A stretch of DNA of 64,000 nt. Origin: Bacteroidota bacterium (GTDB taxonomy: Bacteria > Bacteroidota > Bacteroidia > NS11-12g > UBA955). Position numbers and translations under genes: made by a program. Position 1 is the stretch's first letter; the number at the start of each line of letters is the position of its first letter. The stretch is taken from assembly GCA_027621365.1 (NCBI GenBank), contig JAQCBH010000007.1, positions 22,447-86,446 of the forward strand, in the 5' to 3' direction. Below, one piece after another: positions 1-57,304 of the stretch. The notes below the pieces were generated by a model that had not been told where the DNA came from, made no database searches, and saw only the letters and a list, made by a program, of their open reading frames with translations.

Positions 1-1122
1 GCTCACCCATCCGGGGCTCACAAAGGAATCGCAGGCTTGAACCGAAATGCTGGTGTCAAAACTCTTGTAAATGGTGACTTGGTAGCGAATGTTGGAATCG
101 CAACCGCGCCAGGTTTGGTACTTTTCGAAATAGGAGCCGTCGGCGTAATAAGCGATGCCGGCAGGAGAAACAAAACTGTCGCATCCGCTGACCGCGTAAG
201 CCTTGTTGACTTTGCCAATGGTCAGCTTGATGGTGATGACGGAGTCGCATCCATAGGCGTTGCTGATGATGTCGTTGTAAGTGCCCGAGAAGGTGTAAGT
301 CTTGCCGCTGGGGGCCGTGTAGGAACTGCAAGCAAATGCCGTTAGGGTTGAAGCGGTATTGCCACCGTTCAGGTTAGCCCCACTGACCCAGTTGGAGGAG
401 CTTCCGCTCAGAGCGAAGTTGTAGAGCGTGCCGTGGTTGGAGTTGCCCGAATAGTCGGTAGCCGTTTTCTTGCTACTGTTATTGCCGGAAGAGGTGCCCT
501 CGCTCAATTTGTAATAGGCCTTAACGCGGCTGGGAACTTTGCAAAATTCTTCGTTGTAGTGGGCCTTGATGAGAGAGTCAGAAAGTACCTGCTCATAAAA
601 GCGAACCTCATCAATGTCCCCATCAAAGGAATTGGCGTTGTCCACGCGCATACCGATGCGAAACGGGAAGGTAGTGGCGGTGTTTACGCTCGTTGGAATG
701 GAGCCGGAGGTGTCGAGTTTTCCGTCGACATAGAGACGAAAAGGAGCCGAAGAATTGCTGGGGTTGTAACTCACCCCAACATGGTGCCAGTTGCCGTCGT
801 TGACAACAGTTTGTCCCATCAATCCGGATCCACCAACTTCGATTCGAAGGCGGTTTCCGTACAATACATTCAAGGTGAATCGGCCACCGGTTGTGCTCGC
901 TCCGTAGTCGCAAATGACTTTTTGCTTGCCCCCATTGTTGGGGTCGCAATTGGCCGTAGTGCGTATCCAAGCCTCAATGGTTCGGGCACCGTTGCCGCTT
1001 ACTCCGGCATATTTGGTTTCGACGTAATCGTCGGTTCCATCAAAATTGAGGGAAATTTTTTGTGCTGATAAGGCCGTCACTCCACAGAGGGCCAACATCA
1101 ACCATCCTTTTCTCCAGCCCAT
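1..1122 (-). CDS. Secreted LamG/concanavalin A-like domain protein with Cys-containing GCDS repeats (3' end runs off the window)
   Basis: Not in the ORF track because there is no stop in the window. Manual translation from ATG at 1122 gives MGWRKGWLMLALCGVTALSAQKISLNFDGTDDYVE...TIEAWIRT...VNDGNWHHVGVSY (signal peptide plus LamG motifs), followed by repeated GCDS/ACDS/ACSS units. Confidence 0.85.
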   Translation of the reverse strand, partial: MGWRKGWLMLALCGVTALSAQKISLNFDGTDDYVETKYAGVSGNGARTIEAWIRTTANCDPNNGGKQKVICDYGASTTGGRFTLNVLYGNRLRIEVGGSGLMGQTVVNDGNWHHVGVSYNPSNSSAPFRLYVDGKLDTSGSIPTSVNTATTFPFRIGMRVDNANSFDGDIDEVRFYEQVLSDSLIKAHYNEEFCKVPSRVKAYYKLSEGTSSGNNSSKKTATDYSGNSNHGTLYNFALSGSSSNWVSGANLNGGNTASTLTAFACSSYTAPSGKTYTFSGTYNDIISNAYGCDSVITIKLTIGKVNKAYAVSGCDSFVSPAGIAYYADGSYFEKYQTWRGCDSNIRYQVTIYKSFDTSISVQACDSFVSPGWVS

Positions 1123-1174
1123 GATTATGCAAGTTACAGGGACGGAACCACATTTTTATATGAAGGCCCAAGCG

Positions 1175-2272
1175 CTAATTGAAATGCTGAAAATCAAAGC
1201 ATTGGTAAAGGTCTTCACCGCAGTTTTCAGAGCTGATCATGAGGCTTTGATCCAGTAGGTCTTTCGAGAAACTCGGTACGGCTTGAGATGGTAATGCATC
1301 ATGAGGAGATTGGTACAAATGAACCTCATCCACCAATTGATCTCGGAGCAATGAGCTTGCCAGCTCGGGGCCAGATTCCACCAAAATGGCGGCCATGTCA
1401 AAGCTGGTCCAAAGAGCTTGTGCCAATTCAGTTAGTGGAACTAGGCCATTGACAAATGCCAAGGGTAAGACTTCAACCGCGGGAGGTAATTCGGGAACTG
1501 AAGTATTACGGTCCGTCACCAAAACGATTCGGCTATGGGAGCGGGGGTAAAAGAGGCGCAAGTCTGGGTGCTTCAACAGTGACCCTTCTCGGTCAATGAC
1601 CACCACGCTCAGTTCGCGGGTTTCGTTTTCAAGGCGAACATTCAACACAGGATTGTCGATCAAAACCGTTTTGGCGCTGGTGAGTAGGGCATCAACCCTA
1701 TGGCGCAAGTGCTGATGAGCATGTTGACGGGATTCCAAGCAGCTGATGGGGGTTCCTGTACCCCGTTGAGCGGTCACAAAGCCGTTGCTGGATTCAGCCA
1801 TTTTCAGTTGGATATAGGGCCTTTTGTGAAGCTGATTCACCCAAAAAACCTTGTTGAGTTCGATCGCCTCCTTTAATGGCGTGTAATGAACGTCTACACC
1901 ATTTTTCTGCAACAATTCCAGGCCATTGACCTTGGGGTTAGGGTCTTTTGAGGCTACCCAAACCTCTGGAATTTTGTGCTTGAGAATCAAGTCGCAACAA
2001 GCCGGAGTTCGACCCACGTGCGAGCAGGGTTCCAAGGAAACAAAGAGCCGACATCGTTCAAGTTGGGCCCCGTTTTGCAGGGCCTCTTGAATGGCAAATA
2101 CCTCGGCATGAGACTGTCCCACTTCCGGGTGAAACCCTCTGCCTACCACTTGGTTAAGGTCATTCAATAGGAGGGCCCCTACCCGTGGATTGGGCCTAAC
2201 CCGATTGGGATCGGCCTGCTTAGCCAAAGCAATGGTTTCCAACAACCAAGGGTTTACGAGATAATCCTCCAT
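1175..2272 (-). CDS. ribD: Bifunctional riboflavin pyrimidine deaminase/reductase
   Basis: PNPRVGA, HAEV and LEPCSHVGRTPACC deaminase zinc motifs; reductase domain with DNP.LNVR and ILVESG. Confidence 0.95.
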   Translation of the reverse strand: MEDYLVNPWLLETIALAKQADPNRVRPNPRVGALLLNDLNQVVGRGFHPEVGQSHAEVFAIQEALQNGAQLERCRLFVSLEPCSHVGRTPACCDLILKHKIPEVWVASKDPNPKVNGLELLQKNGVDVHYTPLKEAIELNKVFWVNQLHKRPYIQLKMAESSNGFVTAQRGTGTPISCLESRQHAHQHLRHRVDALLTSAKTVLIDNPVLNVRLENETRELSVVVIDREGSLLKHPDLRLFYPRSHSRIVLVTDRNTSVPELPPAVEVLPLAFVNGLVPLTELAQALWTSFDMAAILVESGPELASSLLRDQLVDEVHLYQSPHDALPSQAVPSFSKDLLDQSLMISSENCGEDLYQCFDFQHFN

Positions 2273-2302
2273 AAATTTGCACCCGAAATTACCGAATTAT
2301 TC

Positions 2303-2887
2303 ATGTTTACAGGCATTGTGGGTTCGGGCCATATCGCCCGCGTAGAACGATCAGATGATCGAATCAAGTTGGGTCTTCTCGCTGAAGATCATTACCCAGA
2401 GTGTCAATTGGGTGATAGTGTAGCTGTCGATGGCATGTGTCTGACGGTCGAGGAAAAGCGAGACGGAGAGTTGATTTTCTTTGTGTCGTCTGAGACCATA
2501 GACAAGACCATAGTGCGCCATTACAAGGACGGTCGCATGGTGAACGTGGAGTTGCCCTTGAGGCCTCAAGATCGCATTGGCGGCCACCACGTTTTGGGCC
2601 ATGTAGATTGCACAGCCACGGTTCATTCTGTCGATCAATCTTCCGGCGGATGGTTCGTTCGCATTCAAATTCCTGAACCATTCCAACGCTACCTTGTTTA
2701 CAAAGGGTCTGTTGCCGTCAATGGGGTGAGTTTAACGGTCAATGCCATTCATGGCGACTTGATGGAGCTTTGCATCATTCCGGTGACGGTTCAAAAAACG
2801 AACTTTCAGTCCCTGCAGGCAGGACATGAAGTAAATATGGAATTTGACATTTTGGCCAAATACACAGAAAGGTTGCTCAACAAGTGA
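2303..2887 (+). CDS. ribE: Riboflavin synthase (alpha chain; ribC in E. coli nomenclature)
   Basis: N-terminal MFTGIV; GDSVAVDGMCLTV, GGHHVLGHVD and KGSVAVNGVSLTV. Confidence 0.96.
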   Translation: MFTGIVGSGHIARVERSDDRIKLGLLAEDHYPECQLGDSVAVDGMCLTVEEKRDGELIFFVSSETIDKTIVRHYKDGRMVNVELPLRPQDRIGGHHVLGHVDCTATVHSVDQSSGGWFVRIQIPEPFQRYLVYKGSVAVNGVSLTVNAIHGDLMELCIIPVTVQKTNFQSLQAGHEVNMEFDILAKYTERLLNK

Positions 2888-4125
2888 AATCGATTTTTGA
2901 TACCGTAGAAGTTGCCTTGAAGGCTTTTTCAAACGGAGATCCCATTGTAGTGGTCGACGATGAACACCGCGAAAATGAAGGGGATATTGTATTCGCTGGC
3001 GCTCAGTGCACTCCCGATAAGATCAATTTTTGTGTTCAAGAGGGCGGAGGCTTGGTCTGCGTCGCTTTGGGACCTGACAGGGCCCGTGAATTGGGGTTGA
3101 CCAAGGTTCCTTCCAACAAAAAAGACCCCTTGTCGACGGCCTTTTTGGATTCGGTTGATGCGGTACAAAGTCATGGGGTTAGCACAGGGATTTCGGCCTC
3201 CGATCGTTCCATCACCACACGTCTTTTAGCGGCTGCTGGAACTCAGACCAGCGATTTTAGCGTGCCTGGTCATGTGTTTCCCTTGCGGGCTGTCCCCGGC
3301 GGATTGTTGGCTCGTCGCGGGCACACAGAGGCAGCGGTTGACTTGTGCAAATTAACGGGTCAAGCCGAGGCTGCGGTGATTTGTGAAATTCTGGACAAGG
3401 ATGGAACCATGTTGCGACGCCAGGGCTTACGATCTTTTTCTGAGCGCCATGGTTTGAAGATGATTTCGATTGAGCAATTGCATGAGTACTTGGAACAACA
3501 TCAGTTGCCATCTCCTTCAACTGAAACGCTTCAGCTCTGTGAGCCGGTATCGGCCTCTAGTCTTCAGACGAAATACGGGGAATTCAGCATTCAGGTGTTC
3601 AAGTCAATCGCAACTGGGGTGGAGCACTCTGTACTGAGCCAAAAAATCAACTTGGAAGCAAAGCCAGTACTGCGCTTGCACAGCGAATGTCATACAGGAG
3701 ATGTGTTTGGTAGTTTGCGCTGCGATTGCGGCGAACAACTGCAATCAGCCTTGCAAAAGATCTCAGAAGTTGGCCACGGTTACTTGATATACCTAAAGGG
3801 CCAAGAAGGCCGTGGTATTGGTTTGGGGAATAAAATTGCCGCTTATTCGCTTCAAGAACAAGGTTTGAATACCTATGAGGCCAACTTGAAATTGGGGCAT
3901 CCCATTGATTCGCGCAGTTACGCCGAAGCGGCTGATATAGTCGCTCAATTGGACTTGGAAGGCTTTGTTCTCATGACCAACAATCCCGATAAAATGGCGG
4001 CAATGAAAAAAGCGGGTTTCAGTTTTGATGTGGAAACCATTCCTGTGCGCCCGAATGCCCACAACCTTCAGTATTTGACTGACAAAAAGAACTTGGGACA
4101 GCACCACATTACTTTTGAATCATGA
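2884..4125 (+). CDS. ribBA: Bifunctional DHBP synthase / GTP cyclohydrolase II
   Basis: RENEGD and RRGHTEA (RibB); RLHSECHTGDVFGSLRCDCGEQL, EGRGIGL and TNNPDK (RibA). GTG start overlaps the ribE stop. Confidence 0.96.
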   Translation: MKSIFDTVEVALKAFSNGDPIVVVDDEHRENEGDIVFAGAQCTPDKINFCVQEGGGLVCVALGPDRARELGLTKVPSNKKDPLSTAFLDSVDAVQSHGVSTGISASDRSITTRLLAAAGTQTSDFSVPGHVFPLRAVPGGLLARRGHTEAAVDLCKLTGQAEAAVICEILDKDGTMLRRQGLRSFSERHGLKMISIEQLHEYLEQHQLPSPSTETLQLCEPVSASSLQTKYGEFSIQVFKSIATGVEHSVLSQKINLEAKPVLRLHSECHTGDVFGSLRCDCGEQLQSALQKISEVGHGYLIYLKGQEGRGIGLGNKIAAYSLQEQGLNTYEANLKLGHPIDSRSYAEAADIVAQLDLEGFVLMTNNPDKMAAMKKAGFSFDVETIPVRPNAHNLQYLTDKKNLGQHHITFES

Positions 4126-4535
4126 TAGCCATTGTTAAAGCCGATTTTAACCAAGAAATCACGGGCCCTTTGTTGAAGGGTTGCGTCGACTACCTAAAAG
4201 AACAGCAGGCTCCCTTTGAGCTTTGGGAGGTTCCGGGAGCGGTCGAAACGGTAGCCTTGAGTAAAAAACTCATGGATACGGGCAGCTACAAGAGCATCAT
4301 TGTTTTGGGTGCCATTGTCGAGGGCGATACGGATCACTACGAGTATGTATGCAACTTCGTGACCCATGGCATTGCGACTTTGTCAGCATCGGCCCATATC
4401 CCAGTAGTATTTGGTGTATTGACCACCCAAACCGAAGAGTTGGCCCTAGAGCGCGCCTTACCAGAGCGCATGAACAAGGGCGCTGAGTTTGCCGAAACAG
4501 CCCTGACCATGATGGGCCTGTTTGCCAAGATTTAA
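4122..4535 (+). CDS. ribH: 6,7-dimethyl-8-ribityllumazine synthase
   Basis: IAIVKADFN, VPGAVE, GDTDHYEYV, PVVFGVLT and NKGAE motifs; ATGA overlap with ribBA. Confidence 0.95.
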   Translation: MIAIVKADFNQEITGPLLKGCVDYLKEQQAPFELWEVPGAVETVALSKKLMDTGSYKSIIVLGAIVEGDTDHYEYVCNFVTHGIATLSASAHIPVVFGVLTTQTEELALERALPERMNKGAEFAETALTMMGLFAKI

Positions 4536-4571
4536 TTGGAGTTTTGCCGGAATTTATCCTGTGATGGGAGG

Positions 4572-4613
4572 CAGGATTGCCTCGTTCGGCTATCGCCGAA
4601 CTCGGCGAACCTG
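4572..4613 (-). repeat. Split T-arm-like hairpin element, copy at tRNA-Leu(GAG)
   Basis: Minus strand reads CAGGTTC-GCC-GA-GTTCGGC-GATA-GCCGAAC-GA-GGC-AATCCTG. The flanks are nearly identical to 57044..57082. Confidence 0.8.
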
Positions 4614-4628
4614 AGGGGCGATCTTACC

Positions 4629-4750
4629 CAAGGCCCGGCTTCCTCGCGCAGCGAGGAAGTGGCCTTTCTTTTTTCCTCTCAGGCTCAACCCTTTGGCTTG
4701 GCCTTCGCTGAAAAAAGAAAGGCCCAGCAGCCTGCGGCTGCCGGGCCTTG
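4629..4750. repeat. Four-way cruciform (nested inverted repeats) directly 3' of tRNA-Leu(GAG)
   Basis: Outer arms CAAGGCCCGGC (4629-4639) / GCCGGGCCTTG (4740-4750); perfect 15-bp central arms GGCCTTTCTTTTTTC (4661-4675) / GAAAAAAGAAAGGCC (4710-4724); two side hairpins. Confidence 0.85.
4711..4749 (-). terminator. Intrinsic terminator of tRNA-Leu(GAG)
   Basis: Minus strand AAGGCCCGGCAGCC-GCA-GGCTGCTGGGCCTTTCTTTTTT, a GC-rich stem followed by a U tract. Confidence 0.75.
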
Positions 4751-4834
4751 TGCCCAGTACTGGATTCGAACCAGCACGTCCTTGCGAACACCACCCCCTC
4801 AAGATGGCGTGTCTACCAATTTCACCAACTGGGC
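4751..4834 (-). tRNA. tRNA-Leu(GAG)
   Basis: GCCCAGTTGGTGAAATTGGTAGACACG-CCATC-TTGAGGG-GGTGG, long variable arm, GCTGGTTCGAATCCAGTACTGGGCA. CCA is not encoded. Confidence 0.96.
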
Positions 4835-53359: not shown

Positions 53360-53991
53360 TGAGGGCGCTGCTGTTTGATCTGGATAACACCCTTTACCCG
53401 GAGGCTAATTATTTCCGAGCCATTTTTTCGCAGTTTTCGCAAAACGAAGGGCTGGATTTTGAAAGATTTGCATTTCTATTCAATGATTTTGACCACATTC
53501 GATTTACGCAGCGGGACATTTTTCGCTACGCTTTGAACCAAGCGGGCGAGTTTTCTGAGACTCGACACCAAGCTCTGTTTGAGTTGTTTGTGGGTATCAA
53601 ATGTGAACTGAAATCATACGATGGCGTACAAGAACTAATAGACTGGGCCCTCGCTGAAAACGTGCGCATCGGTGTATTGACCAACGGTCATATTGAGGCT
53701 CAGTCCAACAAATGGAATGGCTTGGCATTATCGGGCAAAGAACACATTCACTTTGCACCAGCCCGGCTTTTGGGCGCCGATAAACCTTCATCTCTAAGCT
53801 TCGAAGAAATGATGATTCAGATGGGTTGCCGAGCCGAGGAAACGCTCTTCATTGGCGACCGCTTTACCAACGACATAGAATGGGGATTGAATCAGGGTGG
53901 GAAGGGAGCCCTGGTGAATGCTCACGAGAAAGGCGAAGGAGTGCCTTCGTTTGAGTCATTTGAGCCATTGTTGGATTGGGTGAAGCGTTAG
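53359..53991 (+). CDS. HAD-superfamily hydrolase
   Basis: FDLDNTLY motif I, LTNG motif II, KP and FIGDRFTND motifs III/IV. Confidence 0.88.
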   Translation: MRALLFDLDNTLYPEANYFRAIFSQFSQNEGLDFERFAFLFNDFDHIRFTQRDIFRYALNQAGEFSETRHQALFELFVGIKCELKSYDGVQELIDWALAENVRIGVLTNGHIEAQSNKWNGLALSGKEHIHFAPARLLGADKPSSLSFEEMMIQMGCRAEETLFIGDRFTNDIEWGLNQGGKGALVNAHEKGEGVPSFESFEPLLDWVKR

Positions 53992-54029
53992 AATCTGTAA
54001 ATGTCCAAAGCCTGTAAATGGTGCAAAGT

Positions 54030-56153
54030 CTAGGGCTTTCGGCCACTCAAATTCCATCTAATACCGATAAACAAGCGCCTTCCTTGGTTGGGCGCGTAGA
54101 TGTAGGCGGGATCAAAGGTCAATCCAAAAGGATTTTCCGGGCTCACGAGAGCCTTTCCATCCGAATCGAATTCTACTAGCCTATCGAAGGGATCATGGCT
54201 GCGAGCAATGAGAAACGGATTGCCCTTATTGGGTGTCCAATTCAATAGGTTCTTTGCACCGCCATAGAATTCAATCTGGCCATTAAAGGTCTTGGTGAAC
54301 TGCACATTTTGAATGCTCCACCAAGGTGATTGATCTTTTCGAGGATCCCATGGGCTAAGCAAGGGCAGTAGCATGGGGCTGTAGACATTACCGGTGTAGT
54401 CGATTGATATTCCCAAAGTGCGAATCGGGTAGGACAAGTTCCAAGTGGCGGTGAACCTCTCCGTGAACATTTGCCGTTGGCGTTTGCCCTTATCAGAGGA
54501 AGATACGTCCATGATTGTTGCCCCCAGAGTAAACTTGATACCAGACTTCGAAAGACATTCCGTTTGCAATGAAAGTCCTGTTGATCGAGCTGTTCCTTTG
54601 AGGTTGTCATAGATGATTTTGTTGGGATCTGTCGTTAAATCAGCGATGATTTTGTTATCGAAATGGGTATAGAAAATGGCGGCATCCACTCCAAGGAGGG
54701 TTCCATTTTGATTGTGCATTCGCTTGGTGAAATTGATAGTGCCGTTCCAAGACCTTTCCGGTTTTAATTGCGATAGAAATACAACCTTCCTCGCCCCAGT
54801 AAGGGAGGCATGGTCTTCTGTGAAAACTTGGGCAATTCTGTATCCGTTGCCAATCCCACAGCGCAACACTTGTTGGCCATTCGGAGATTTCCATTTAAAG
54901 TTGAGCCGAGGGCTGACAATGTTTCCATGAATGGAATTCCTGTCGTAGCGAAGGCCCGTTAACAAGACTTTTCCCGTGCCCAAGTTCCATTCGTGTTGAC
55001 CAAACAAACCAGGCAAATGGGTGATTTGAGCGAGGTTGAACGATTGACCTAATGAATCGAAGAGGGTTGTCACCACTGTATTGTCGTCGTAGAATGTGTA
55101 GCGATAAGTGATGCCAGCCAGAAAATGATGTTGGTTCAGGGTTTTGTTCCAAGTGCATTGAGCAAATCCCACTCGCTGTTGAGCATTGAACAACAGATTC
55201 CCGTAAGCGCTGTTCTGTTGGTGGCCATTGGCGCTGAAGCTAAGCATCACATCCTCTTGAAAAGGCAGCTGGTATTGACCAAAGAACTCCCACCGACGGG
55301 TATCGATACTTTCTCCATAAATGCTATCACTTCCTCGGAATTCAGGTGTCCACTGCTGTTGACCGCCCCAGCGTTCTTCATTCACATAGCGAGCAGCGAC
55401 AGTGAGCAAACGACCCTCTCTGCGTTCCATGCTCCATTTGTTGAACAAGGATATACGGTCTTGCAGGGTGACATCGGTAAAGCCATCTGAATTGTGGTCA
55501 ATGGGGTTTTGGTAGTAGAAACGGTTCAATCCTACCAGCGAATGCAGTCTACTGCCCATTTTGGTGGCCCATCCTACATCCAAATTGCTTTCTGCCCAAG
55601 TGTTCGAAATGATGTCTACCTGAAGGGGTACGGTATTTTCTGCTTTTTTCGTGATGATGTTGATCAGGCCCCCTACAGCCTCGCTTCCATATAGGGTAGA
55701 GGCTGGCCCTTTGATGACTTCGACACGATCAATGATGGACTGAGGCATACTGGATAGGCCATATACGGTTGATAATCCGCTAACGATGGGCATTCCATCC
55801 ACCAGAACCATGGTGTAGGGACCTTCCAGCCCATTGATATGGACATCTCCGGTATTGCAAATGCTGCAGTTAATCTGGGGTCTCACCCCGTTGATTCCCT
55901 GCAGGGCTTCAAAGACAGATGGCGTAGGATTGGCCTTGAAATATTGGGCAGTAAAAACTTCAACAGGTACAGGATTTTCAAGTTTTGACATAGCCCTAAG
56001 AGTTCCCGTTACTACGACCTCTTCAAAAATGGAAGCCTTGGAAAGGCTGTCAGATTCCTGCGCAAAAGTGCTGTTGATCAGTCCTATTCCAAGGACCGAC
56101 ATCCAGCATTTGGCTCCACTGAATTGGCAAAATAGTTGTTGGATTGGGCGCAC
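54030..56153 (-). CDS. TonB-dependent receptor with CxxC plug (probable metal uptake)
   Basis: EEVVVTGT, GVRPQINCSICNTGDVHINGLEGPYT, RVEVIKGPASTLYGSEAVGG and C-terminal GRRLFIGIRW. Start uncertain (GTG 56153 or ATG 56102). Confidence 0.88.
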   Translation of the reverse strand: MRPIQQLFCQFSGAKCWMSVLGIGLINSTFAQESDSLSKASIFEEVVVTGTLRAMSKLENPVPVEVFTAQYFKANPTPSVFEALQGINGVRPQINCSICNTGDVHINGLEGPYTMVLVDGMPIVSGLSTVYGLSSMPQSIIDRVEVIKGPASTLYGSEAVGGLINIITKKAENTVPLQVDIISNTWAESNLDVGWATKMGSRLHSLVGLNRFYYQNPIDHNSDGFTDVTLQDRISLFNKWSMERREGRLLTVAARYVNEERWGGQQQWTPEFRGSDSIYGESIDTRRWEFFGQYQLPFQEDVMLSFSANGHQQNSAYGNLLFNAQQRVGFAQCTWNKTLNQHHFLAGITYRYTFYDDNTVVTTLFDSLGQSFNLAQITHLPGLFGQHEWNLGTGKVLLTGLRYDRNSIHGNIVSPRLNFKWKSPNGQQVLRCGIGNGYRIAQVFTEDHASLTGARKVVFLSQLKPERSWNGTINFTKRMHNQNGTLLGVDAAIFYTHFDNKIIADLTTDPNKIIYDNLKGTARSTGLSLQTECLSKSGIKFTLGATIMDVSSSDKGKRQRQMFTERFTATWNLSYPIRTLGISIDYTGNVYSPMLLPLLSPWDPRKDQSPWWSIQNVQFTKTFNGQIEFYGGAKNLLNWTPNKGNPFLIARSHDPFDRLVEFDSDGKALVSPENPFGLTFDPAYIYAPNQGRRLFIGIRWNLSGRKP

Positions 56154-56161
56154 TTCACGTT

Positions 56162-56204
56162 CAAAGTTAGAATAATCAAACAAAACAATTAGAATATGCT
56201 AATT
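56162..56204 (-). promoter_or_regulatory. -7 promoter (TAACTTTG, 56162-56169) overlapped by tandem palindromic operator candidates
   Basis: GTTAGAATAATCAAAC (56166-56181) and AATTAG-AATATG-CTAATT (56187-56204) share TTAGAATA with a 22-bp offset. Confidence 0.5.
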
Positions 56205-56345
56205 ATTTTTGGTTTGAAGCCATGAAAAGTCTTGGATCTGGGTGGAAAAGGCGACTATGGTATATGGAAATGGCAAGGGGGATCCCAGGCCATTTTTTCG
56301 CATTTTTAGAAATAATGAGGTTGCTTAGAGGAACACACTCAGTAA

Positions 56346-56367
56346 ATGTCGTGCAGATGTCGTGTAG
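56346..56367 (+). promoter_or_regulatory. 11-bp tandem direct repeat upstream of the XRE gene (operator candidate)
   Basis: ATGTCGTGCAG ATGTCGTGTAG, about 30 bp upstream of TATTTTTG (56398-56405). Confidence 0.45.
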
Positions 56368-56409
56368 GAATCAGAGATGTTGAAAGTGGGCTATGGCTAT
56401 TTTTGTACC

Positions 56410-56796
56410 ATGCAAATGGGCAGTGAGATCAAAAAGGCGCGAAAGCAAAAAGGGCTTACTCAAGCTGAGTTGGCGGAGCATTCTGGGTTGACCGAACGAA
56501 CCATTCAACGCATAGAAAACCACGAGGTTGAACCTTCTGCATACTCATTAGGAAAGTTGAGTGTGATACTGGAAGTTGATTTCCAAAACATGAAGGACAG
56601 TATCCAAAAGAGGCAGAATTACGGGTTGTATGGCTTTGTAATTGTTTATTCGGCCGCCATGATTTTCCGAGTGTTTTCTTCTACAACAGATTGGCCCTTT
56701 TGGTGGGAGTTCATCATTTGGCTTTCGGTGATTATAGGTGTTCTAAGTAAGCAGATCTACATTCCCTATTACCTGAAAAATTCGAAAAAAAATTAA
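56410..56796 (+). CDS. XRE-family HTH protein with two C-terminal TM helices
   Basis: IKKARKQKGLTQAELAEHSGLTERTIQRIENHEVEP followed by two hydrophobic helices. Confidence 0.85.
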   Translation: MQMGSEIKKARKQKGLTQAELAEHSGLTERTIQRIENHEVEPSAYSLGKLSVILEVDFQNMKDSIQKRQNYGLYGFVIVYSAAMIFRVFSSTTDWPFWWEFIIWLSVIIGVLSKQIYIPYYLKNSKKN

Positions 56797-56868
56797 ACTG
56801 CGTGTTTTCTGTGGTGGTACTGCCATTGAACGTTCGCGGTAATAACTAGCTGATATTTCTTCAAGAGC

Positions 56869-57082
56869 AGACAGGATTGCCTCGGCGGCGAAGCCGCCTG
56901 ATGCTATACCCGAATGAACCTCTGTTATCGCTAAGGTGAATTACCAGGAAGATTAGACAGGATTGCCTCGGCGGCTGCGCCGCCTGATGCTGTTTTCGAA
57001 TGAAGCTGTGTTATTGGTAAGGACAACAATCTGTGAGATTAGACAGGATTGCCTCGGCGGCTAAGCCGCCTCAGCGAACCTG
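56869..57082. repeat. 2.5 tandem copies of an 86-bp hairpin-containing unit
   Basis: AGACAGGATTGCCTCGGCGGC-NNN-GCCGCCT starts at 56869, 56955 and 57041, with loops GAA, TGC and TAA. The linkers are diverged but related. Confidence 0.92.
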
Positions 57083-57101
57083 TTAGGCCGAATTCCGAGC
57101 C

Positions 57102-57213
57102 CAAAGCCACCGCGCTTTCGCGCCGTGCTTTTTTCATTCCCTTTGGCTTGCTCACACGGGGTGTGGCTCGCGTCGGGAATGAAAAAAGCCCTTGGCCATA
57201 GCCAAGGGCTTTG
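57102..57213. repeat. Four-way cruciform directly 3' of tRNA-Leu(CAG)
   Basis: Outer arms CAAAGCC (57102-57108) / GGCTTTG (57207-57213); perfect 15-bp central arms GCTTTTTTCATTCCC (57127-57141) / GGGAATGAAAAAAGC (57175-57189); two side hairpins. Confidence 0.85.
57182..57212 (-). terminator. Intrinsic terminator of tRNA-Leu(CAG)
   Basis: Minus strand AAAGCCCTTGGC-TATG-GCCAAGGGCTTTTTT. Confidence 0.85.
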
Positions 57214-57222
57214 TGTTCTTAG

Positions 57223-57304
57223 TGCCCAGAACAGGACTCGAACCTGCACGCTTTGCGGCGCTGCCACCTGAAGACAGTGCGTCTACCAATTTCGCCATCT
57301 GGGC
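57223..57304 (-). tRNA. tRNA-Leu(CAG)
   Basis: GCCCAGATGGCGAAATTGGTAGACGCA-CTGTC-TTCAGGT-GGCAG, variable arm, GCAGGTTCGAGTCCTGTTCTGGGCA. CCA is not encoded. Confidence 0.96.

Follow-up and report, generated by a model that had tools for sequence, protein, structure and literature searches.

A T-arm-like hairpin at the distal junction of short non-coding modules that appear to be inserted in tRNA genes of Bacteroidia

A 64,000-nucleotide (nt) stretch of contig JAQCBH010000007.1 from a Bacteroidota bacterium (assembly GCA_027621365.1; the whole stretch is called the window here) carries two tRNA-Leu genes that are each followed, on the tRNA strand, by a conserved imperfect hairpin, named H, which begins 138 nt (site 1) or 141 nt (site 2) 3′ of the gene (Table 1). 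At both sites a terminator (T2) ends the converging genes, which are ribD, ribE, ribBA and ribH at site 1 and, at site 2, a helix-turn-helix (HTH)/membrane protein gene beside a TonB-dependent receptor gene. The other three tRNA-Leu genes of this genome, called G000 (on contigs C1, C31 and C34), have their CCA encoded and lack the motif. No integrase or transposase was found among the 54 of 55 open reading frames (ORFs) of the window that were scanned. Comparison with other genomes suggests that H marks the distal junction of short non-coding modules inserted in the T-loops of tRNA and transfer-messenger RNA (tmRNA) genes in Bacteroidia. Such small elements seem not to have been described before.

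Read on the minus strand, site 1 (4613-4572) is CAGGTTCGCC-GA-GTTCGGC-GATA-GCCGAAC-GA-GGCAATCCTG and site 2 (57082-57044) is CAGGTTCGCT-GA-GGCGGC-TTA-GCCGCC-GA-GGCAATCCTG. Both are exactly as given in an earlier reading made from the letters alone (the sequence-only reading), and the flanks pointed out there exceed chance in the window: GAGGCAATCCTG with at most one mismatch occurs five times versus 0.29 expected, a number reached by 0 of 100 shuffles, and CAGGTTCGCYGAG occurs twice versus 0.16 expected, reached by 1 of 100. Folding predicts a long imperfect hairpin on either strand at both sites (z about -4.3 to -5.4), in which an outer stem of 4-5 base pairs (bp) leads through an internal loop (3x3 or 1x1) to GCC/GGC, and a 2x2 loop of GA/GA (or UC/UC) separates this from an apical 6-7-bp stem; the energies are similar for both strands and do not tell them apart. 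The exact 12-mer of the motif is present in four copies at two loci of the 2.13-Mb genome (35 contigs, 94% complete), all inside the window, and genome scans with two models, R1 and R2 (the latter a covariance model), gave no copies beyond those of these loci. ARAGORN and Rfam detected just three true tRNAs in the window and no cloverleaf body upstream of H, while scans of the window sites and four related loci against Rfam 15, with gathering thresholds and by E-value, returned nothing but tRNAs and noise. A description of the units as degenerate tRNA copies was rejected, the Smith-Waterman scores against tRNA-Leu being reached by 117, 96, 290 and 15 of 300 shuffles, and a likeness of GGAUCACC to the 3′ end of 16S rRNA was dropped, since the genus of G000 (g1) has GGUUCGCC.

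The wider family of H was reached through the sequence 3′ of the orthologous tRNA-Leu pair in other genera and a 90-nt tandem array in genome G011, the hairpin of which, TGGATCACC-GAA-GGTAATCCAG, has the flanks of the g1 motif and no apical insert. The two genes of this pair, tRNA-Leu(GAG) and tRNA-Leu(CAG), have acceptor stems in common; they stand in tandem, 16-77 nt apart, in related genera, and 52 kb apart in g1. With the search pattern GGWTCRCYGA-N0-24-AGGYARTCC and its reversal as a control, 12 matches were obtained in 9 of 125 genomes of the family and 19 in 14 of 191 genomes of the order, the control giving none in either. In a sample of the class, 21 of 401 genomes and 19 of 200 genera had matches against 3 for the control, and about five of the class-level matches look like chance, lying in coding or unrelated context. 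The consensus is N-GG-W-TC-RCC-GA[0-21 nt]GA-GGY-AAT-CC-N, in which the lower stem is constant and the tip varies from 0 to 21 nt, being absent (GAA loop) or taking the form GA-CC-NNN-GG-GA, GA-GC-AAA-GC-GA, an 8-bp palindrome or the 6-7-bp stems of g1. Pairs of the lower stem, GGATCACC/GGTAATCC, are fixed or compensated, one changing from A-U to G-C and another from C-G through U-G to U-A. Among 34 H sequences, 97.4% of cells are paired, versus 85.7% in shuffles and at most 60.5% in slid controls, and five of nine pairs change on both sides.

Model R2 detects H in 14 of the 125 family genomes at E <= 0.01, which is a lower bound because it misses known variants. Model R1, built on hairpin and tail, exceeds 41 bits in g1 only among the same genomes, and overlooked the wider family because the genus-specific tip was modelled. 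Exact-pattern scans for the g1 form gave 2 true matches out of 12 across the species genomes of GTDB, both in the same genus, 4 out of 52 in metagenomes, where one more has the hairpin but a GC-rich, coding-like context, and 0 out of 4 in viral contigs; this form of the motif thus appears limited to this lineage. The exact 12-mer was discarded as a marker among 41 relatives, as all 12 matches outside G000 lack the hairpin, lie in unrelated sequence and are due to chance. A scan of viral sequences for H in general gave one true match out of five, which lies beside a tRNA 3′ half and looks like a host flank. One copy of H (locus L168, genome G181) is 860 nt from a tRNA-Val gene, at the end of a 144-amino-acid (aa) ORF that looks truncated, and is followed by a degenerate fragment of the tRNA-Val 5′ half; since this copy is off any tRNA gene, H occurs outside its standard position too.

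A co-oriented tRNA or tmRNA gene is found no more than 400 nt upstream of H in 28 of 39 tabulated loci, and the distance from gene to hairpin is 122-144 nt in 24. The neighbours are genes for tRNA-Leu(GAG, CAG), tRNA-Ser(GGA, CGA, TGA), tRNA-Pro(TGG, CGG), tRNA-Val(GAC, TAC), tRNA-Arg(ACG), tRNA-Cys and tmRNA. The 12 nt after the AATCC of H equal the 3′ end of the neighbouring tRNA at 11-12 positions in five loci (in genomes G474, G460, G442, G512 and G399), and in genome G090 the match to the tRNA 3′ end is 17/17 and is followed by a second terminator. The base before the GG of H is that of tRNA position 51 in 22 of 27 loci, of position 50 in 9 and of position 49 in none, and the base after the CC is that of position 63 in 21 of 27. 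Because positions 51 and 63 match in this way and the tRNA 3′ end follows AATCC, H is, as far as sequence tells, a mimic of the T-arm in which G57 is replaced by a 3-bp extension and a tip of variable length. The inserted module supplies the 5′ half of H, and the 3′ half comes from the displaced tRNA 3′ end, into which it runs from A58 on.

The roughly 130 nt between the tRNA and H follow one common plan, in which the nucleotides after the tRNA pair with a stretch ending 15-23 nt before H. This complementarity, P1, differs in sequence among loci; the median exact run is 10 nt versus 4.9 in shuffles, and the observed length is reached by 0 of 200 shuffles in 19 of 25 loci. Within P1 lie the tRNA terminator (T1), T2 and, between them, a central hairpin whose loop is GCTTGC-like. 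In a fresh module, the tRNA up to G57 is followed by a replacement 3′ end (A58 to the discriminator plus C); by the P1 5′ strand, T1, the central hairpin, T2 and the P1 3′ strand, forming an imperfect palindrome of about 130 nt; by a C-rich linker of 15-23 nt and the 5′ half of H (N51-GG-A-TC-ACC-GA..GA-GGT); and finally by the displaced original 3′ end (AATCC...) and the native terminator (T0). The module is about 160-190 nt long and has no ORF inside. In the flanks, integrase domains were found at 1 of 29 loci (59 of 77 ORFs scanned), the flanking genes being otherwise ordinary. The central hairpin has a recurrent palindromic core, RRGCTTGCYY or AAACTTGTTT, at loci L174, L176, L181, L186, L187, L190, L193 and L199, which is a second conserved sequence feature of the modules besides H.

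The sequence-only reading is partly borne out by these loci: its T-arm relationship is real and, as the T-stem of the neighbouring tRNA shows, tied to tRNA genes, and insertion into tRNA T-loops accounts for the DNA that carries the motif, as indicated by the 3′-end copies from A58 on and by the empty and filled sites within genera described below. Its proposal of a scar or recognition site of an element that inserts into T-loops needs to be divided. The link to insertion stands, and the GA-flanked hairpin itself is neither the inserted element nor a scar of the T-arm; it is the tip of a conserved hairpin, enlarged (0 to 21 nt) in a lineage-specific way.

Gain, loss and stacking of the modules are seen within genera. 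In genus g21, the tRNA-Val gene of G181 is directly followed by its terminator, and G182 and G183 carry about 330 nt (two units) at the same place, bounded by AATCCTACATCGCCCAC and its copy, a direct repeat of 17-18 nt, beyond which the sequence matches the flank in G181. At the tRNA-Leu(GAG) locus of genus g9, G022 is empty, G090 has one fresh module, G088 and G094 have modules and G011 has 4.6 units; there was no match at this locus in G096. Consecutive units of locus L179 have the same plan with unrelated T1 and T2 sequences, and near-identical tandem units occur in G011, at L182 and at site 2 of G000. In G460 (contig C10, about 44.1-46.7 kb), tRNA-Val(GAC) is followed by two H-bounded modules, L181 and L196, with about 2.2 kb between them. 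This interval has a P-loop NTPase ORF of 407 aa, which is STAND/NACHT-like by eye and has no Pfam match at 1e-6; judged by its sequence, the interval looks like a cargo cassette without an integrase. Metagenome contigs L097 and L127 have two tandem copies of the T1-T2 block some 130-300 nt beyond tRNA-Leu(CAG), with a degenerate tRNA 3′-end copy (..CCTGTCATCGGCAC or ..ACTGTCCTCGGCAC) in between. Locus L148 (genome G034, contig C31), in the sister family, has a repeat of about 250 nt 3′ of the pair tRNA-Leu(GAG)-tRNA-Leu(CAG); within it is the 3′ part of a tRNA, its T-arm normal (GGGATTCGATTCCTGTTCTGAAC), a footprint of the ordinary att type at the same gene pair.

The same variability is found among G000 and its congeners G001, G002 and G003 in genus g1. 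G002 and G003 have site 1, its tail being AATCCAG, the T-stem sequence of tRNA-Leu(GAG). The site is absent from G001, where the whole rib block is gone from the same place: the segment corresponding to 1066-4660 (rib operon plus H) is missing, and a LamG-like gene is linked to T2 and the tRNA by about 180 nt. At site 1 of a metagenome contig (L112) there are three units of 85 nt, each with its GGTTCGCC half. At site 2 of G000, units 2 and 3 have retained the apical hairpin and the tail GAGGCAATCCT and lack the CAGGTTCGC half; G002 has one unit; G001 has three identical repeats (apical AACCGC-GAA-GCGGTT, tail GAGGCAGTCCT) separated by unrelated spacers of 27 and 48 nt; and G003 has neither T2 nor the motif, its terminator at the empty site being homologous to T1 of G000. 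The 3.2-kb block 53928-57181 is present in G000 and G002 and absent from G003, G001 having the array and T2 only. By sequence comparison, the apical stem of the motif covaries within the genus, its flanks are retained and its copy number varies. No repeats were found at the far borders of the two H-bordered variable blocks. One contig of run X6 joins 56868 to 57041, so that two units (172 nt) are skipped. In RNA run X20 (7% of words), six contigs partly cover the genes for the TonB-dependent receptor and the HTH protein as well as the tRNA region, but not the array, which is uninformative either way.

Table 1. Features at and around the two H sites of the window
Feature	Position	Strand	Basis or remarks
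tRNA-Leu(GAG)	4750..4834	-	ARAGORN, sequence; no encoded CCA; site 1 at its 3′ flank
T1 of site 1 (tRNA terminator)	4709..4749	-	terminator scan; 14-bp stem, then T run
P1 5′ strand, site 1	4740-4749	-	P1 complement; first 10 nt of T1, AAGGCCCGGC
T2 of site 1 (terminator of the converging rib operon)	4630..4672	+	terminator scan, sequence; stem 4638-4660, then T run
P1 3′ strand, site 1	4630-4639		P1 complement; complementary to 4740-4749
Linker GGGTAAGATCGCCCCT between P1 and H, site 1	4614..4629	-	sequence
H, site 1 (reported motif)	4572..4613	-	sequence, folding, model R2 29.4 bits
H site 1, stems: outer CAGG/CCTG, lower GGTTCGCC/GGCAATCC		-	sequence
H site 1, GA/GA	4602-4603 and 4582-4583	-	
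H site 1, apical hairpin GTTCGGC-GATA-GCCGAAC	4584-4601	-	
Tail AATCCTGCCTCCCATCAC, site 1	4561..4578	-	sequence; position of the displaced tRNA 3′ end in fresh copies
rib block, ribD	1175-2272	-	
rib block, ribE	2303-2887		
rib block, ribBA	2884-4125		
rib block, ribH	4122-4535		
tRNA-Leu(CAG)	57222..57304	-	ARAGORN; sister paralog of tRNA-Leu(GAG); no encoded CCA; site 2 at its 3′ flank
T1 of site 2	57185..57212	-	terminator scan; 12-bp stem, then T run
T2 of site 2	57108..57137	+	by eye; not flagged by the perfect-stem terminator scan
H, site 2 unit 1	57044..57082	-	sequence, folding, model R2 26.5 bits
H site 2 unit 1, CAGG/CCTG, GGTTCGCT/GGCAATCC, GA/GA, apical GGCGGC-TTA-GCCGCC		-	
Site 2 unit 2, CA-GGCGGC-GCA-GCCGCC-GAGGCAATCCT	56959..56986	-	model R1 45.6 bits; without GGTTCGC half
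Site 2 unit 3, CA-GGCGGC-TTC-GCCGCC-GAGGCAATCCT	56873..56900	-	model R1 41.7 bits
Tandem array, site 2	56869..57071	.	period 86 nt, 2.4 copies, 82% matches
TonB-dependent receptor gene	54030-56183	-	in block 53928-57181, with the HTH gene, the H array and T2
HTH/membrane protein gene	56377-56796		in block 53928-57181

The T2 hairpin of site 2 (57108-57127) has 7 bp with one mismatch and, in the minus-strand reading, a GAAA loop, and the T run follows on the plus strand. The tails of the two window copies match the 3′ ends of their own tRNAs at 1/12 and 3/12 positions; at site 1 the likeness of the tail to the tRNA 3′ end is limited to AATCC and the final CAC. As these tails no longer match the tRNAs, the window copies appear to be old relics with degenerate ends, a status suggested by comparison with fresh copies. 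Other signs of age are the lack of a native terminator after the tail, the tip in the form of a genus-specific hairpin, and the threefold amplification of site 2. They are most likely passive now, lying in the zone between converging terminators, and they may still be recombination-prone borders of variable blocks (the rib operon at site 1, the TonB-dependent receptor and HTH genes at site 2).

The footprint of the H modules is that of site-specific integration in tRNA genes (tDNA): a restored gene, a displaced 3′ fragment from the T-loop on, empty and filled alleles, and stacking. We therefore lean, with somewhat better than even confidence, towards H as an att-type junction or recognition hairpin of miniature modules devoid of an integrase, which would be integrated in T-loops by a candidate recombinase acting in trans and reading the folded T-arm mimic. 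The crossover would take place in or next to the AATCC of the T-loop and T-stem, and repeated insertion or local duplication would produce the tandem arrays. The tip is free in length and the lower stem fixed, and H would therefore be read as a folded hairpin rather than as a duplex with fixed spacing. In G000, a 422-aa tyrosine recombinase gene is present within about 1 kb of tRNA-Ser(TGA) on contig C18 and a second one, of 409 aa, about 12 kb further; this region (C18:14251-27392) is probably an integrated element, and H was not found in it. A more far-reaching form of the proposal, in which the modules are undescribed gene-less mobile elements that carry a replacement 3′ end with a bidirectional terminator and home to positions 57/58 of tRNA and tmRNA T-loops by an attC-like folded site with a host or helper recombinase, and the arrays possibly serve as integron-like landing pads for the gain and loss of gene blocks, is a tentative one that we consider possible rather than probable; the P-loop NTPase cassette of G460, the rib operon and the TonB-dependent receptor/HTH blocks could be examples of such landing.

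The modules would belong to a known kind of DNA, tDNA-targeting integrative elements, in a gene-less form. According to the Islander report (PMC4383910), islands in tDNA regenerate their target and leave a displaced fragment, attP sites of the T-stem region are common, with T-arm-region crossover in 1836 of 3919 islands, and the filters demand an integrase gene, so that inserts like the H modules would go unlisted. As in Islander-type islands, which are integrated by tyrosine integrases, the 3′ part of a tRNA or tmRNA gene is the target of the H modules, the gene is restored, a displaced 3′ fragment is at the far end of fresh copies, and tandem arrays are formed. The displaced end is well preserved in some relatives (the five loci and G090) and degenerate in the window, and empty and filled sites are found side by side (G181 against G182 and G183, G022 against G090 and G011, and in g1 G003 without site 2 and G001 without site 1). 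Unlike these islands, the H modules have no integrase inside, are all built to one fixed plan (palindromic double terminator, linker, hairpin), have an extended-loop T-arm mimic as the junction, and use many tRNA species. In the T-arm itself, the stem N51-G52-G53/C61-C62-N63 and the flanks TTC/ATC and AAT are shared with H, and fresh copies continue 3′ into acceptor-strand sequence; on the other hand, RCC-GA[..]GA-GGY takes the place of G57 in H, most genera have A for T54, and there is no cloverleaf with a 7-nt T-loop.

Folded single-stranded recombination sites are known from the integron attC and the attP of CTX phage, which are imperfect hairpins with lower-stem mismatches and a centre of free length, and integron cassettes, which may be non-coding or small, stack in arrays by one fixed site. 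The attC boxes R″/L″...L′/R′ (RYYYAAC/GTTRRRY) are accompanied by a nearby intI. H resembles attC in its imperfect hairpin, in the conserved mismatches of its lower stem and in the free length of its centre, whereas H (NGGWTCRCCGA..GAGGYAATCCN) has no R/L boxes, no integrase is found among the window ORFs scanned, and the target is a tRNA T-loop. Recognition as a folded single strand, a feature of attC, may apply to H as well, given the variable tip over the fixed lower stem. Retention of att sites without recombination genes, dependence on a trans-acting enzyme and tandem arrays at a single site are also known from cis-mobilizable elements (CIMEs), derivatives resembling miniature inverted-repeat transposable elements (MITEs) and accretion arrays of integrative elements. 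CIMEs are, however, kb-sized deletion derivatives of a known integrative and conjugative element, whereas the H modules have no known parent and a size and plan that are constant across families.

Some observations weigh against insertion by a recombinase in trans. No recombinase linked to the modules was found, nor was an excised circle or a larger autonomous relative bearing H. More than ten tRNA species are targeted, so that each module would need a matching 3′ end, which is awkward for an enzyme-less element of 160 nt. At the window copies, a direct repeat of the tRNA end does not survive, and the borders of the g1 insertions cannot be drawn because the terminator at the empty site of G003 is homologous to T1 of G000. 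Compensatory changes keep the structure of H, P1 and the central hairpin, as is expected of a functional RNA. The tRNA-Leu(GAG) module seems to be vertically inherited in g1, g9 and g11: the locus has the same Rhomboid/DUF2807 neighbours in the three genera, and the linker is common to g1 and g11 (GGGTAAGATCGCCCCT matching GGGTAAGACCGCC). A dead scar should have decayed over such a span. These last points would be accounted for if the module, or the linker plus H, were a structured non-coding RNA tied to tRNA loci, with DNA mobility secondary or absent. It would be either an RNA derived from the 3′ trailer on the tRNA strand or a small RNA of the opposite strand (H, a G-rich single strand and T2), and the T-arm mimic would recruit a tRNA-binding or tRNA-processing protein. 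Besides the covariation in H and P1 and the retention of the tRNA-Leu(GAG) locus, the conservation of GA/GA wherever a tip stem exists, with loops that are mostly GNA or GNNA on the tRNA strand, the C-G to U-G to U-A series at stem position 8 on that strand, a mismatch at stem position 5 in all variants (C.A on the tRNA strand, U.G on the other) and, for the opposite strand, a T2 located directly 3′ of H agree with an RNA. The strand signals conflict, though, since the U-G intermediates and the GA/GNA features fit the tRNA strand and the constant C.A (U.G) and the position of T2 fit the opposite one, and T1 should halt tRNA-strand transcription ahead of H. There is no match to an Rfam family, the modules are patchily distributed, with sister genomes having empty sites, and exact duplicates of tRNA 3′ ends with displaced native terminators are a signature of DNA insertion. 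We regard the RNA explanation as the main rival, if a rather unlikely one, and it can be true together with the mobile-element explanation.

Tandem duplication without any movement between loci is a further possibility, in which slippage or unequal crossing-over would have duplicated the tRNA 3′ end with a bidirectional terminator at each tRNA and the array would then have drifted. The T1 of the G090 module is closely like the native T0 and the terminator of the empty site in G022, with an alike T2 tail, which fits local duplication as well as insertion. The duplicated T1-T2 block of L097 and L127 with its degenerate 3′-end copy, the near-identical tandem units noted above, and the whole-unit changes of copy number in the run X6 contig and in G002 can also be read in this way. 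However, one 19-nt core, GGATCACC-GAA-GGTAATCC, with the same replacement of G57 follows tRNA genes for Leu, Ser, Pro, Val, Arg and Cys as well as tmRNA genes in many families, which separate origins at each locus could not produce, and the units of L179 differ in both T1 and T2; a purely local origin is accordingly quite improbable. An orphan mini-array of the CRISPR type (clustered regularly interspaced short palindromic repeats), or a dispersed palindrome of the repetitive extragenic palindromic (REP) or bacterial interspersed mosaic element (BIME) type, might be suggested by the repeats of about 28 nt, each a hairpin with a conserved 3′ tail, and by the identical repeats with unrelated spacers in G001. 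Such a nature is hardly credible: no Cas1 is encoded in the G000 genome (94% complete), the spacers have irregular lengths (27, 48 and about 58 nt), with 82% likeness among the spacers of G000, and homologs in other genera are single hairpins at tRNA junctions. The resemblance to REP-type repeats raised in the sequence-only reading likewise fails, as REP/BIME-type palindromes are dispersed in tens to hundreds of copies in a genome, this genome has two loci only (four copies) and the pattern of the g1 form has no further true match across GTDB.

Integration in T-loops by a recombinase in trans thus remains the preferred explanation. In the full texts of the journals covered, supplements excepted, the 19-nt core in four spellings gave no match, and nothing on such modules was found under miniature, non-autonomous or integrase-less tRNA elements. 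tRNA genes are the classic landing sites of islands, and island finders require an integrase gene and kb size; here a compact, conserved non-coding module shows the same landing site and the same footprint in many families of Bacteroidia and at more than ten tRNA species. Mobile modules would represent a new type of non-autonomous element with a structure-specific att site copying the T-arm of its own target, and would hint at a recombinase that can handle folded tRNA-like DNA. Should the modules instead be RNA genes, an RNA that is linked to tRNAs and carries a T-arm mimic would be widespread and unannotated. In both cases, the recurrent tandem arrays of 85-180 nt behind tRNA genes are explained, and H provides a precise marker for their annotation.

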